In this document: in pieces, positions 45,001-48,000 of the stretch | Position numbering within the stretch: the first letter of the stretch is position 1 | How the letters are laid out: each line of letters starts with the position of its first letter | NCBI GenBank assembly: GCA_963793865.1 | Contig: CAWCBP010000014.1 | Span: forward strand, 160,001 to 224,000 | Direction of reading: 5' to 3' | Source of the DNA: an uncultured delta proteobacterium | Lineage (GTDB): Bacteria > Desulfobacterota > WTBG01 | DNA length: 64,000 nt | Made by a program: the position numbers

Positions 45001-48000
45001 ATGCGTTTATCCGGCAGTTCGGAGATCTTTCCTGTTCCATTGGTGAGCAGACGCAGTGTCTTCAGGGTCCCCAAGGGATTATCAGGATTTTACTTACCAT
45101 GGCGTCACGGCAACCGGTGAACAGAAGACGTGTATCGCATGATCTCAGCACGCTCACGTCCGGCTTTCTTTCCCGTTTTGAAGGTAAAGAAAGGGAATTT
45201 GCCGCTGAACTGCTTGACCTGGGCCGGGCGAGTTATCGGTTGCGGGATGATGATAACATCTATCTTGACAGGATTGAGCGGGAAGTGATTGCTGCCGCGG
45301 AGGAGGGAAGACGCAGAATCGAAAAACGCTGCAGTATGAAAGTTGATTCTTCAGATCCCGATGAAATCATGCGAGCGCTGCAAGACCCGCATTACATTCC
45401 GGCAAAGCGCTCCGCTGCTGAAGAGATACAGCCTTCCTCCGGGCTGAAGCTGCGGCAAATCGTCGGTCAACCTGCGGGTCCCGGCATTACAAAAGGCAAG
45501 GCGAGGGTTATTCTGAGCCCATCAGATATCTTTGCCTTTGAATCAGGGGAGATTCTGGTCTGTGATGCCATTGAGCCCACCATGACCTTTGTGGTTCCTC
45601 TGGCATCGGGAATCATAGAGCGCAGGGGCGGGATGCTGATTCACGGGGCCATCATCGCTCGCGAGTATGGCATTCCCTGCGTAACCGGGATTCCCGATGC
45701 CACCTCTCTGATCCGTACCGGAGATGTGGTTACGGTGGACGGATATTTGGGAATCGTCATAGTCGGCGCGTGAGGTTCATCCCGCGGTTCTTTACTAATT
45801 GATTTCTCCTTGATAGGAAGGCAGGTTCGGGAACAGCTATGCATTGGCAAAACCTGAGGAGGTAGCAGGGAAGGGGGGACGTTGATGCAGAGGGTGCTTT
45901 GCGGGAAAGAGGTGCAGCCAGCAACAGCGAACATATCGCGCCTGAATGCGCTGCGGGCATAATTTCAAATGCCGCGGCGCCCTGCTGTTGCTGATAGCGT
46001 GTACGGTTGAAATCCTTCGCCCTTCATGGTGCATCTGCTCTTATACGCTTCATAGGCGTCTACATTATTTACACAGCCGGGATACTGAATGGGGAACGGC
46101 AATGACTCCATGGCGGTCTTGCTGATTTCGTGGGAAAGGAATCTTCCTTTTGCGGTGAAGCAACCGTTCTCGGTATAACCACACAGGTTTAAGCACGCCG
46201 CAAAGGTACGCAGATACCAGGGCAGGCTGACGGATGCATCAATATTTAAGTCATACATCATTTTTGATAAAGCACGCATATGCTTATTGCTCCCGCTACC
46301 GGTTGATAAAAATCCCATGCGTTTAGCATCAGCCATTGCCTGTAAATACACCGGGATTTCAGGATTCATCATTCGGGCAGTGCCATATGCCGAATATGCC
46401 CCGGCACCAAAACCAATATAATCTATGGCCAGTTCATTGCCGGACGAATCATACACCTCACCAGTATCCTCCCGGCTGAGAATCCATGCGGTTCTTCTGA
46501 TGTAGCCTCGTTCCGCCAGCCGTGCGCTGATGCGTTCAATATGCTCAAATTGGTCCATGGAAGAGAAAGAAGGTGTGAACGGCACACGCTTGCCTTTCAC
46601 CTGTACGATTGGATAAAGAGCAATTTGGTCAGGTGCAATGCGCTCGATTGCTGAAACATCATCGGCAAGAGATGCTTCGGTTTGCCCGGGCAAGCCGATC
46701 ATAAAGTCCAGGCTGGTCCACAGGCCTATGGACCGGGCATGTTCAACCACATCACTGATAAACCAGGATGGCGCGTTCTTTCTGCCGGTTTTTTTTAGGG
46801 GCTCCGCGGCAAAAGACTCGATGCCCATGCTGATTTTTGAAAAGCCCATATGCTTTAAGCCGTCCAGGTACTCTTTGGTCAAAAGAGACGGCAGAAGCTC
46901 AATGGCGTAGTACGATGCAGTAATATATTTTTGCAAGCACGCAATGATTTCATTGAGTGAAGCAAGCGAAAGGCAATTCGGGGTGCCTCCGCCAAAATAG
47001 ACCCACCGGGCATGTCCTGCCGGCTTGCACAATTTGATCTCTTGCAGTACCGCCGCTGTATAATCAGATTGGCTGTATTTGCTGAACCGTTCGCTGTAAA
47101 AAGCGCAAAACGAACAACGCTGGATGCAAAGCGGTATATTAACATAGACGCCGAAAGCATCTGGCACATTGATTTCCGGAAGCTCAGTAAACTGATAGCT
47201 TATTTTTGAAAGCTTTTTTTTCAGCATCAGACAAAATAATTTTTCAATCATCCATTATTCTCCGGAATGAAAGAGAATCCCCTGACCCGCCATACAGCAG
47301 ATCAGGGGACGCCGTTTTTTATCCACCGACAGACGATGCAGTCCCTTTTCCACGGGGATGCATCATTTTCCATGACATTACAGGCAGGTCTTCTGGCTTC
47401 CGGATCTTCCCTCGGGCTGCGCCTTCCCGTCATTTCCGACAGTGGCATGATGCAGCGTCAGTCCCCGGTTACAGCGACGGGTCCGCGACGGATTTACACC
47501 GTCTTCCCTTTTAAACCTCTCTGGGTTCCCGTAAGTAGTTTTTTAGGGCGCATTTGCCTTGCGCCGAGGAAACTATAGGCGGGTCAGGTGTATATGTCAA
47601 TACAAAATTTGAAATAAACAAGGGGGTCGGGTCTCAATATTCAACATTTTATTTCAAAGCGATACCACGCATGTGTTGAATGTTGAGACCTGACCCCATG
47701 ACAATACGCCCCTATTTTTCGGCAATTTTTTCAGCCAGCGCAAAGAGTTCTTTGAGGGATTCGGGAGTTGCAAAGCCCTGTCCCTGCCATCGGATGATTC
47801 CCTCCTTGTCCAGCAGAAAGGCATAACCGTAACGTGGCTCAAGGTTCAATTCTTTCATGTATTTTTCCACATCACCGTACATGGTCACGACATTTTTATG
47901 CTTTTCCCTGGGGATGCCGCCGCGCATGCCGCTGTCAATGATAATCCGCATGAATCTATATCCCGAGGAAATCATCGGCACCTCGTAAAAGGTGAACCCA

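Follow-up and report, generated by a model that had tools for sequence, protein, structure and literature searches.

What is a gene for a HemN-like radical SAM protein doing directly behind a cobalamin riboswitch? The question is raised by a single stretch of 64 kb (the window, by which we mean the whole of the DNA analysed), and the answer has to be sought largely in the relatives of the gene.

The locus and its riboswitch

The RF00174 match is not truncated: it covers positions 1-189 of the 189 of the model and, at 111.2 bits, lies far above the gathering threshold of 31.5. Nothing else in the 64 kb matches an Rfam model at gathering level. The ATG of the gene is found 114 nt 3′ of the aptamer, and the N-terminus of its 428-amino-acid product, P0001 (MIEKLF...), is kept among relatives (Table 1). 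Since the downstream neighbour, a gene for a PPDK_N/PEP-utilizers protein (43593-45773), is on the + strand, the HemN-like unit is monocistronic. No Ni/Co gene lies next to it within the window. There is just one other RF00174 match above cut-off in the genome, and it heads a corrin-synthesis operon (hemA-hemL-sirC-hemC-cobA/hemD-hemB-cbiX-like-cbiC-cbiL...cbiET). A preliminary description of this locus had already reported the full-length riboswitch directly 5′ of a HemN-like gene, the monocistronic unit and a second riboswitch before hemA-hemL-cbiX type genes, and in all three respects it proved accurate; it counted 21 genes with a B12-binding domain, where a domain search gives 26 matches, 23 of them above cut-off and many in ORFs of 430-620 amino acids. 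CbiM, NiCoT, HupE/UreJ and NikR were looked for in the genome (98.6% completeness) and none was found; the organism is a de novo B12 maker, yet one in which none of the three common Ni/Co importer families searched was detected. No sequencing run contained as much as half of the sampled words, and the two RNA runs, which consist of contigs, contained 0.05 of them.

A putative sigma-70-like promoter lies upstream of the aptamer. It is the one such site in 45500-48300, where shuffled sequences give 3.0 ± 1.7, so that the count is not significant; the position of the site relative to the aptamer, and nothing else about it, is suggestive of a promoter. Between aptamer and gene, two hairpins are predicted. 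The first, the sequence of which is almost invariant among the leaders of clade A (clades are defined below), could for example belong to an antiterminator or form a kissing-loop helix. The second resembles a terminator: its stem (47310-47277) has 15 pairs, eight of them G-C, the two arms CCCCTGATC...GGTCAGGGG are kept across clades A and B, and the segment GGAT.AAAAACGG is conserved along with the stem in an alignment of related leaders. Structure prediction places a GC hairpin followed by a U/T-run 20-35 nt before the ribosome-binding site in 10 out of 10 related leaders. Compensatory changes preserve the stem in one of them (L090), and the U-run is strong in six (L089, L090, L141, L143, L146 and L005), while that of the window leader is weak. 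GGAG is kept in nine of the 10 aligned leaders, and the aptamer-to-start distance is 114-124 nt in the nine with a callable start. The conserved hairpin and U-run support an OFF switch, which would operate through transcription termination; this direction, previously assumed, now has structural backing.

Table 1. Features of the riboswitch-gene unit (positions in the window)
Feature	Position	Strand	Basis and remarks
Sigma-70-like promoter, TTGACA-17 nt-TATAGT	47572..47600	-	11/12 consensus positions; ends 25 nt upstream of aptamer
Cobalamin riboswitch aptamer, RF00174	47366..47547	-	Rfam covariance model, 111.2 bits, E 5.3e-27
First expression-platform hairpin	47335..47364	-	predicted stem, immediately 3′ of aptamer
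Terminator-like hairpin and T-rich tail (TCTCTTTCAT)	47267..47310	-	scan, fold of 10 leaders, alignment
Ribosome-binding site, GGAG	47260..47263	-	read from sequence, 9 nt before ATG
Gene for 428-aa HemN-fold radical SAM protein (P0001)	45965..47251	-	ORF call, ATG start; stop codon included
[4Fe-4S] motif codons, C42-x3-C46-x2-C49	47105..47128	-	C42, C46, C49 and F51 invariant in 31 sequences
GGGTPN codons, residues 87-92, HemN-type SAM-binding glycine motif	46976..46993	-	aligned to HemN GGGTP
Family-specific YDSSGNEL codons, residues 267-274	46430..46453	-	at alignment position of HemW HNxxYW
Family-specific C-terminal ESLPFP codons, residues 382-387	46091..46108	-	E382, P385 and P387 invariant

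The protein and its family

Pfam detects in P0001 the Radical_SAM domain alone (PF04055, residues 40-198, 73 bits for a cut-off of 29.5); HemN_C is not detected, and no NCBIfam model reaches its cut-off. The domain, together with a CxxxCxxC motif of invariant cysteines, makes P0001 a radical SAM protein. Its predicted structure (pLDDT 87.9) has HemN, 1OLT, as best PDB match in Foldseek (E 1.2e-23, TM 0.68/0.67 over 439 columns, C-terminal domain included), the next match being at a TM of about 0.34. HemN also comes first in a sequence search of the PDB (E 6.3e-20), with the class C methylase NocN second (E 3.4e-13), while a search of the ESM Atlas led to generic 'radical SAM' clusters only. 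In an alignment of 31 family sequences, G87, G88, G89, T90 and P91 are invariant, as are E118, R157 and D182, which align with the SAM-site Glu, Arg and Asp of HemN; the SAM1-side motifs can be read in the alignment of P0001 to HemN. As judged from the predicted model, P0001 adopts the HemN fold along its whole length, and its radical SAM core is intact.

There are, nevertheless, clear differences from the proteins that it resembles. The fourth cysteine of the HemN motif CxxxCxxCxC is essential; HemN aligns as CHKLCYFCGC, and the place of this cysteine is occupied by F51 in P0001 and by Phe in 31/31 aligned family members, none of the 63 family proteins having the HemN motif. The regulatory setting of the family, moreover, is one of B12 or nickel (see below) and, unlike that of HemN, not one of heme synthesis. 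CxxxCxxCxF is common to the family (57/63) and to HemW-like proteins (56/58), and HemW (YggW) is also of similar length and the top NCBIfam model. However, the HNxxYW motif, a proposed heme contact of HemW (PMC10114718, in excerpt), is found in 54 of 58 HemW-like matches and in 0 of 63 family proteins, where YDSSxDEL stands instead. Y267, D268 and E273 of this motif are invariant in the 31 sequences. The corresponding pattern YD[ST]S is present in 60/63 family proteins vs 0/58 HemW-like matches, and a second one, E[ST]LPFP.Q.P, in 36/63 vs 0/58 others. None of the named subfamilies is reached by score: the HemW model TIGR00539 gives 111.1 bits (cut-off 205.4), the STM4012 and PRK08629 'CPO family protein' models NF006067 and NF006385 give 110.8 (380) and 100.3 (355), the ChuW/HutW model TIGR04107 gives 102 (400) and the HemN model TIGR00538 gives 97.5 (324.95).

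Homologues P0002-P0063 score from 966 down to 253 bits, after which there is a fall to 118 bits; the proteins beyond the gap are HemW-like and carry HemN_C. The 31-sequence alignment contains 48 invariant columns, spanning all three clades. By these sequence measures, P0001 belongs to a small, separate and unnamed family, which stays below the cut-offs of the HemN, HemW and ChuW/HutW models and lacks both the fourth cysteine of HemN and the HNxxYW of HemW. The preliminary description had found Radical_SAM as the only Pfam domain and no NCBIfam match, as we do, and had placed the protein among HemN-like enzymes with ChuW as best characterised relative; the fold bears out the superfamily, but any special affinity to ChuW is weak, since the models for ChuW/HutW, STM4012, HemW and HemN lie together at about 100-111 bits, well short of their cut-offs.

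Within the class, the gene is carried by five genomes out of 42, a count identical to the earlier one, and by three of the 401 genomes sampled in the phylum. The four relatives in the class are 88, 72, 39 and 40% identical to P0001. A riboswitch of the same orientation as the gene is located directly 5′ of it in the 88% (107.1 bits), the 72% (113.5 bits) and the 39% relative (105 bits, the match being cut by the contig end), and none is detected upstream of the 40% one, whether the gathering level or E<=0.1 is applied; the pairing is therefore conserved in three of four relatives down to about 39% identity, as first described. Family loci were gathered by scanning metagenome contigs with a DNA pattern built on the motifs, a profile scan of genome contigs being dominated by HemW-like genes (the true members among the 80 loci kept were L001-L005). 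The census amounts to 68 loci, or 56 clusters at 90% identity. A quick IQ-TREE search supports clades A, B and C (SH-aLRT 100, 99 and 99, respectively), though not their branching order. Clades A and B are 35-45% identical to clade C, the hosts of which include Asgard and other archaea, Clostridia and Spirochaetia. No longer or fused form (750-2140 amino acids) turned up at E<=1e-40, which counts as weak evidence.

Genomic contexts of the family

The contexts of the 56 clusters distribute as follows: a riboswitch in nine (excluding the window itself), a NikR gene or box in 10, a Fur-family regulator in five, a TonB receptor in three, an ECF Ni/Co transporter in three, another metal link in three and none in 23. 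Many of the latter are on short contigs, and the 5′ region is missing in four of the 23 (five of the 56 overall). The Fur-linked loci form one synteny group and should thus be counted as a single event. The riboswitch is always present in clades A and B and never in clade C. Clade C genes adjoin NikR genes, lie 3′ of predicted NikR boxes or within Nik/Cbi ECF transporter operons, follow larB-larC (larB>larC>family gene in L120), precede the gene for a hydrogenase maturation protease (L003), or have a Fur-family regulator ahead of them or a TonB-dependent receptor immediately 5′. In four loci (L097, L099, L119 and L138) the family gene is in an operon with, or adjoins, Ni/Co transporter genes, the order being nikR>family gene>DUF4198>CbiM>NikL in L099, CbiM>family gene in L138 and family gene>CbiO in L119. 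The linked NikR genes score 175-183 bits with the NikR equivalog NF003381 (cut-off 105). Within 250 nt upstream, 7 predicted NikR boxes were found in 14 533 nt, compared with 0.115 expected and a maximum of two in 200 shuffles; two further predicted boxes are situated 16 nt upstream of the nikR gene that heads a nikR>family gene operon. The picture that emerges is that of a putative regulon, with riboswitch lineages (the nine clusters and the window), NikR in 10 more clusters and both together in L089, a 72% identical member of clade A with a riboswitch 5′ and a NikR gene directly 3′.

No universal partner gene and no ChuX/ChuY-like neighbour exists across the 68 loci. Genes for cbi/cob biosynthesis stand beside the family gene in 0/68, the only ones of this kind being the transporter genes CbiM, CbiO and NikL; a step of corrin biosynthesis was for that reason rejected as the main reading. 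Nor does any of the 68 loci place the family gene next to a gene for a class B methylase, for a RiPP or antibiotic, or for another substrate. The TonB receptors 5′ of the family gene have their best scores, below cut-off, with B12 and hemin receptor models. Relaxed scans added little: Rfam (E<=0.1) revealed no hidden riboswitch at the loci with a TonB receptor or at L091 and L092, which have NikR, and Pfam revealed nothing but an ArsR-family regulator among the unassigned neighbours at L116 and L121. Some clade C loci have exporters as neighbours: EamA with an ABC-2 pump and YbjQ in L111/L144, MatE in L118/L123, and an MFS_3 'secretion effector', together with a SAM methyltransferase, in L093/L103. 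Such exporters (EamA, MFS_3, MatE, ABC-2) and small SAM methyltransferases would fit the synthesis of a metallophore better than the role preferred below.

Possible roles of the enzyme

A parallel to this distribution is provided by Nik/CbiMNQO and other Ni/Co transporters, the nickel branches of which are told by NikR and nickel enzymes and the cobalt branches by B12 riboswitches and B12 genes (PMC2667541 and PMC545781, both in excerpt). Clades A and B correspond to the riboswitch branches and clade C to the NikR branches, with the difference that P0001 is a soluble HemN-fold radical SAM enzyme and not part of a membrane transporter. Because the split between riboswitch and NikR is that of the cobalt and nickel transporter branches, we infer that the family serves the supply of metal for cofactors, probably cobalt in the clade of the window and nickel in clade C, and not the replacement of a B12-dependent enzyme. 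In the window genome, plentiful adenosylcobalamin would let the aptamer allow the terminator to form and transcription would stop; when B12 is scarce, the HemN-like gene would be read through, together with the corrin-synthesis operon. The explanation that we tentatively prefer, and to which we would give a little less than an even chance, is an enzyme that is produced when cobalt/B12 (or nickel) runs short and serves metal-cofactor supply, maybe by ChuW-like action on a metal-tetrapyrrole. The 23 of 56 clusters that have no metal link speak against it, as do the lack of a Ni/Co gene beside the unit in the window and the weakness of the U-run there.

As to the chemistry, our most likely guess is that the enzyme would attack a metal complex of the tetrapyrrole type by SAM-dependent radical chemistry, much as ChuW does, and so release the metal; the guess is based on the fold, on family precedent and on the TonB-receptor operons. 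ChuW and HutW carry out a ring-opening methylation of heme or porphyrin, forming 5′-dA and SAH, and sit in heme-uptake/utilisation operons with ChuX/ChuY-type partners. The reaction of ChuW frees iron, and metal-free porphyrin is a substrate as well (PMC10114718, in excerpt). The family shares with them the HemN-like superfamily and, in some clusters, a place directly behind a TonB receptor (three) or a Fur-family regulator (five). In contrast to them, it is without ChuX/ChuY-like neighbours, has the receptor in just three of 56 clusters, and is controlled by the B12 riboswitch and NikR; the adjacent transporters are of the ion-type ECF kind (CbiM, NikL, CbiO), not tetrapyrrole importers of the BtuFCD/Hmu type, which argues against ChuW-like chemistry. 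So does the expectation that a de novo B12 producer should salvage corrinoids rather than destroy them. A bolder form of the idea, which we consider unlikely, makes the family the founding member of an anaerobic 'metal-liberating' radical SAM class, the Co/Ni counterpart of ChuW. Induced by cobalt/B12 starvation in the riboswitch clades or nickel starvation in the NikR clade, the enzyme would act on scavenged metal tetrapyrroles of no other use to the cell (debris of corrinoids, complexes of the F430 type or resembling geoporphyrins) or on some other tight chelate, opening or alkylating it, and the cobalt or nickel liberated would feed the cell's own cofactor synthesis. The opening or methylation of a tetrapyrrole ring for the benefit of the corrinoid pool had been offered as an alternative in the preliminary description; recast as metal supply it comes near to our preferred guess.

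The same description's boldest reading was a B12-independent class C radical SAM methyltransferase that stands in for a class B methylase when corrinoids are scarce, by the metE/metH logic. Class C enzymes bind two SAM molecules and transfer the methyl group through a SAM-derived methylene radical. Such enzymes exist among HemN-like proteins (PMC10114718, in excerpt), NocN is the second sequence match in the PDB, and the 26 matches to B12-binding domains in the genome, many in ORFs of the length given above, are also in favour. A single enzyme gene under an OFF-type riboswitch is also what is seen with metE and the nrdDG isozymes, B12 elements before B12-independent isozymes being an established pattern (PMC545781, in excerpt). 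For P0001, however, no B12-dependent counterpart was identified, no context among the 68 loci offers a class B methylase or substrate gene, and isozyme switching leaves unexplained the links of the clade C relatives to regulators (NikR and the Fur family), to Ni/Co ECF transporters and TonB receptors, and to LarBC and a hydrogenase protease. L089, where riboswitch and NikR gene meet, and the presence of the gene in so few genomes of the class and phylum point the same way, and we regard the stand-in as improbable. Rather unlikely, but ahead of it, is a role in making or completing a small molecule that binds metal, a carrier of cobalt or nickel that is exported and taken up again or serves as an intracellular buffer. 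The gene is under metal-starvation regulators, exporter-type genes occur at several clade C loci (L111/L144, L093/L103 and L118/L123) and a TonB receptor directly 5′ in three clusters; it has no fixed partner, so the enzyme would have to suffice on a common metabolite. Against this, the exporters are found at a minority of loci, come from four separate families and could be neighbours by chance, neither an exporter nor a receptor adjoins the gene in the window or in its close relatives, and no HemN-like enzyme is described as a metallophore maker in the literature searched, including the review PMC10114718 in its excerpted part.

The enzyme could also work on the cell's own tetrapyrroles, as a HemW-like carrier that passes on a cobalt or nickel tetrapyrrole or in an as yet unassigned step of anaerobic corrin synthesis. 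The full-length HemN fold, the CxxxCxxCxF shared with HemW-like proteins, the top rank of the HemW model (111 bits) and the corrin pathway as the other riboswitch unit of the genome are in favour, but that score falls short of the cut-off of 205, HNxxYW is absent from the family and YDSSxDEL takes its position, cbi/cob biosynthesis genes are adjacent at none of the 68 loci, and 37 of the 42 class genomes lack the gene. Nor is the synthesis of a nickel tetrapyrrole known from the Asgard and other archaea, Clostridia and Spirochaetia that host clade C. This reading we place below the stand-in. Least probable of all, in our view, is that clades A/B and clade C have diverged to unrelated substrates, in which case the contexts of clade C would be uninformative for the gene of the window. 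Their modest identity, their clear separation in the tree and an uninformative neighbourhood in the window would allow it; the 48 invariant columns, both family-specific motifs included, and the clade A locus L089 argue otherwise, and so does the occurrence of the same riboswitch/NikR split within Ni/Co transporter families of constant function (PMC2667541, in excerpt).

In the literature searched, no connection is drawn between HemN-like proteins and any of B12 riboswitches, NikR and Ni/Co uptake (PMC13715372, in its excerpted part, concerns HugZ-type heme oxygenases). What the analysis defines is a compact, conserved family without a characterised member, with regulation consistently toward cobalt/B12 and nickel economy by two unrelated sensors, one of them an RNA switch and the other a protein repressor, in bacteria as well as archaea. 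Coproporphyrinogen oxidase is a routine mis-annotation of HemN-like proteins, of which no more than a handful of functions are known, and we know of no radical SAM enzyme that takes part in the acquisition of nickel or cobalt. If the link is true, anaerobes would have a new component in the supply of the metals that B12, CODH/ACS, hydrogenases and the nickel-pincer cofactor require, and biochemists a defined target with clear candidate substrates; if the Co/Ni counterpart of ChuW were real, this would be a new trace-metal route in sulfidic, metal-poor sediments, common to bacteria and Asgard archaea. The closest profile neighbours outside the family have their best scores with the PRK08629, ChuW/HutW and STM4012 models, and some of them attain the cut-offs of the STM4012 or PRK08629 models, P0157 for one (398 vs 355).

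The riboswitch-gene unit and its leader

Across the whole 64-kb window RF00174, the cobalamin riboswitch, is the sole Rfam family above the gathering score, and the pairing of this element with the radical SAM gene, as put forward in the preliminary description, is confirmed, with 114 nt between aptamer and ATG. Because the next gene downstream lies on the other strand, the unit is monocistronic. A promoter-like site precedes the aptamer; shuffled sequences of the region contain such sites no less often, so that it is suggestive by its placement alone. A consensus scan allowing up to 2 mismatches found no NikR box near the gene.

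Features of the riboswitch-gene unit (coordinates within the window)
Feature	Position	Strand	Evidence or remark
TTGACA-17-TATAGT site	47600-47572	-	ends 25 nt before aptamer
Cobalamin riboswitch RF00174	47366-47547	-	Rfam, 111.2 bits, E 5.3e-27, model positions 1-189/189
15-pair hairpin, 8 G-C	47310-47277	-	scan between aptamer and start codon; T-rich tail after
GGAG	9 nt upstream of ATG	-	read from sequence
Radical SAM ORF, 428 aa	47251-45965	-	on the strand of the aptamer
PPDK_N/PEP-utilizers protein gene	43593-45773	opposite to radical SAM ORF	next gene downstream

Folding of the leaders of the window and nine related loci (n=10) gave a common order in 10/10: the aptamer is followed after about 55 nt by a hairpin rich in GC (CCCCTGATC...GGTCAGGGG), and then come a U-run, the ribosome-binding site and the start. 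The distance from aptamer to start is 114-124 nt in nine leaders, and no start is callable in the tenth, L005, where the gene is fragmented. In the alignment of the ten (A2), mean column identity is 67%, a GGAT.AAAAACGG segment and the stem show little or no variation, and compensatory changes preserve the stem in locus L090. U-runs are strong in six leaders (L089, L090, L141, L143, L146, L005), and that of the window is weak. This terminator-like layout is that of a predicted transcription-terminating OFF switch, the direction that had been assumed earlier; we infer both ligand binding and direction. Between clades A and B, two deep branches of the protein family, the expression platform (GGAT.AAAAACGG and the terminator stem; window 47267-47547; L090, L141, L143, L146, L106, L005) hardly differs, although the proteins are only about 40% identical; conservation is higher in the leader than in the gene behind it (A2). 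At L005:5941-6744 (+), in an 'uncultured delta proteobacterium' MAG, an intact riboswitch (113.2 bits) precedes a family gene split into 183- and 81-aa ORFs, which is either a pseudogene or the result of long-read frameshift errors.

Fold and limits of the protein family

Pfam recognises Radical_SAM alone in the window protein (residues 40-198), with no match to HemN_C, and five NCBIfam models score it alike, all far under cut-off: HemW 111 bits (cut-off 205), STM4012 111 (380), ChuW/HutW 102 (400), PRK08629 100 (355) and HemN 97.5 (325). The top PDB sequence matches, HemN 1OLT (6.3e-20) and the class C methylase NocN (3.4e-13), cover the radical SAM core only. An AlphaFold model computed from an alignment of 31 family sequences has high confidence (pLDDT 87.9, pTM 0.87). 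Among PDB structures it fits HemN best, along its whole length (E 1.2e-23, TM 0.68 to 1OLT, 439 columns), the next ones (HydE and others) reaching only about TM 0.34. Judged from this predicted model, the HemN fold is present in full, which bears out the earlier placement of the protein in the HemN superfamily. The radical SAM core is intact, with three Cys and GGGTP invariant; in the 31-member alignment, which has 48 invariant columns, the residues aligned to the SAM-site Glu, Arg and Asp of HemN are invariant as well. W256, Y267, D268, E273, H374 and E382 also belong to the invariant positions.

In a search of 5.8 billion proteins, the family matches P0002-P0063 (35-100% identity, about 400-430 aa, Radical_SAM only, with source names that include Thor-, Hod- and other Asgard archaea) run from 966 down to 253 bits, beyond which scores fall abruptly to 118 bits at HemW-like proteins with HemN_C. 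A profile run against 1.84 billion representatives at 50% identity yielded about 25-30 family-like rows, few enough for the family to be considered small; the YD[ST]SxxE motif occurs in 13/147 new representatives, and the next-best representatives beyond the family have PRK08629, ChuW/HutW-like and STM4012 as best models. CxxxCxxCxF is found in 57/63 family members and 56/58 HemW-like matches. Unlike HemN, in which 1OLT has a fourth cysteine, the family has it in 0/63 members. HNxxYW, the HemW motif according to PMC10114718, is present in 54/58 HemW-like matches versus 0/63 family members, and at its alignment position the family carries YDSSxDEL (60/63 versus 0/58). By the tests applied, the family is not HemN, HemW or ChuW/HutW: model scores are under cut-off for all three, and the motifs of HemN and HemW are missing. 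The protein represents a new and as yet uncharacterised subfamily within a known superfamily, and the riboswitch itself is ordinary.

Regulatory contexts of the family

The family gene occurs in 5/42 class genomes, the relatives being 88, 72, 39 and 40% identical; the first three have a riboswitch immediately upstream (107.1, 113.5 and 105 bits; the contig ends within the third), and none was found at the 40% relative, even at E<=0.1. Those counts of the preliminary description that could be checked were all reproduced, and so was its conservation of the pair down to 39% identity. Five named genomes (among the matches listed), four class genomes and 59 metagenome contigs make up the 68 loci examined, the contigs coming from a motif-based pattern scan and being confirmed by tblastn in 59/59 cases. 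A usable 5' region is available in 60/68; at Rfam gathering level, the riboswitch is directly upstream on the same strand in 10/60, lies 3.7 kb off on the other strand in L121 and is absent from 49/60. The L121 element (6386-6589 (+), full, 105.1 bits) precedes an open-ended 386-aa ORF (6739-7896 +) with no Pfam or NCBIfam match, a divergent unit 1.5 kb from the start of an operon of TonB receptor and family gene.

Neighbouring ORFs were called by a simple script and then scanned with Pfam and NCBIfam. A NikR gene directly adjoins the family gene on the same strand in seven loci; three of these NikR genes were scored with NF003381 and reached 175-183 bits (cut-off 105). In six loci, all of one synteny group, the gene immediately upstream codes for a Fur-family regulator, and a TonB-dependent receptor stands directly upstream in the operon in four, with B12 and hemin receptors as best models, both under cut-off. 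Other arrangements (FAM, family gene) are nikR>FAM>DUF4198>CbiM>NikL (L099), CbiM>FAM (L138), ECF ATPase>FAM (L097), FAM>CbiO (L119), larB>larC>FAM (L120), FAM>hydrogenase maturation protease (L003/L136) and FeoB nearby (L133); no universal partner gene exists across the 68 loci. A further metal-sensor family, ArsR/SmtB (HTH_5), is represented near the TonB-receptor>FAM operon in two related loci (L116:8818-9207 (+) and L135:2848-3237 (-)).

Scanned with the delta-proteobacterial NikR consensus GTGTTAC-N13/14-GTAACAC (PMC545781) at up to 2 mismatches, the 506,814 nt of loci and window contain 13 predicted boxes. Seven of these lie no more than 250 nt in front of the family gene (in L132, L122, L094, L001, L127, L134 and L004, the archaeal ones being L001 and L004); 200 shuffles of the same 14,533 nt averaged 0.115 and never exceeded 2. 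Two more lie 16 nt upstream of the nikR that heads a nikR>FAM operon (L112, L099).

Clustering of the 68 loci at 90% identity leaves 56 clusters: nine have a riboswitch, ten a NikR gene or box, five a regulator of the Fur family, three a TonB receptor, three an ECF Ni/Co transporter and three some other metal link, and 23 carry no context label. Many of the last are short contigs; five clusters are without a 5' region, four of them unlabelled and the fifth, L119, counted under ECF Ni/Co transporter. In a quick maximum-likelihood tree (65 rows with five HemW-like outgroups, rows <330 aa left out), the riboswitch is in all members of clade A (window, L101, L088/L150, L089; SH-aLRT 100) and clade B (L141, L090, L143, L106, L146; SH-aLRT 99) and in none of the 49 rows of clade C (SH-aLRT 99), to which all nickel, iron, receptor and transporter contexts belong; the branching order of the three is not fixed. 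All three clades occur within the window's class (genomes G019, A; G018, B; G012, C with NikR). In the 72% relative, L089 of clade A, the family gene stands between the riboswitch and a NikR gene that follows it directly (948-1358 (-), equivalog at 182 bits, cut-off 105, 140 nt beyond the family gene on the same strand). The NikR gene is possibly co-transcribed, which would place a nickel-type regulator under B12 control.

Proposed role in metal supply and candidate chemistry

As had been reported, the window's genome has a single other RF00174 match above cut-off (contig C8, 651331 onward), heading hemA-hemL-sirC-hemC-cobA/hemD-hemB-cbiX-like-cbiC-cbiL...cbiET, and its B12 regulon consists of this corrin-synthesis operon and the window gene only. 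B12-binding-domain matches number 26, of which 23 are above cut-off. Family searches of this genome (98.6% complete) returned no CbiM, NiCoT (NicO), HupE/UreJ or NikR; it makes corrin de novo, yet shows none of the Ni/Co importer families searched.

The B12 riboswitch and NikR both repress genes when the metal cofactor is ample. Branches with one or the other mark cobalt- versus nickel-specific Nik/CbiMNQO, NikABCDE and other Ni/Co transporters (PMC2667541, PMC545781), a split matched by the clades of the HemN-like family. This split, two regulators that both silence genes at plenty, a two-unit regulon and the failure to find importers together argue for a cobalt/B12-starvation gene; the window gene would be part of that response and serve metal-cofactor supply. 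The preliminary description had instead proposed a B12-independent stand-in for class B radical SAM methylases, by metE/metH logic. In the 68 loci there is no class B methylase beside the family gene, nor are there cbi/cob biosynthesis genes around it, and given the riboswitch/NikR split and the make-up of the regulon we do not read the gene as such a substitute. The earlier interpretation is upheld in part: pair, conservation, superfamily and OFF direction stand, and the isozyme idea is unsupported. An enzyme of the metal-supply starvation response is the best explanation as a whole, at somewhat short of an even chance, and the statement about the regulon is firmer than any proposed chemistry. 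No description of the family's wiring to Ni and Co sensing occurs in the literature searched, though the supplements to the 2003 and 2006 regulon papers of Rodionov and co-workers could mention the gene.

To our knowledge, every characterised HemN-like protein other than the methylases acts on tetrapyrroles. In the case of ChuW, a methylation that opens the ring sets iron free, and porphyrin without metal is accepted as well (PMC10114718). Fold, these precedents and the receptor operons make ChuW-like chemistry a candidate, and as a first guess the enzyme may, by analogy, attack a metal-tetrapyrrole complex. However, the transporters adjoining the family gene are ion-type ECF systems, and tetrapyrrole importers or ChuX/ChuY-like partners are missing. 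Participation in making a metal-binding compound would fit about as well, exporters and small methyltransferases being present in several loci.

Elsewhere in the genome, C14:42897-43025 (-), outside the window, gives a sub-threshold RF00174 match (24 bits against a gathering score of 31.5). Within the window, a 742-aa ORF at 39027-41255 (-) has no Pfam match at E<=0.001, and a 2,4-dienoyl-CoA-reductase-like gene (Oxidored_FMN and Pyr_redox_2) at 48365-50319 (-) consists of two ORFs (420 and 235 aa) with a 16-nt overlap at 49057-49072. The 88%-related locus has both domain sets in one 650-aa ORF (L150:2233-4185), which points to a frameshift in the window or to an assembly error there.
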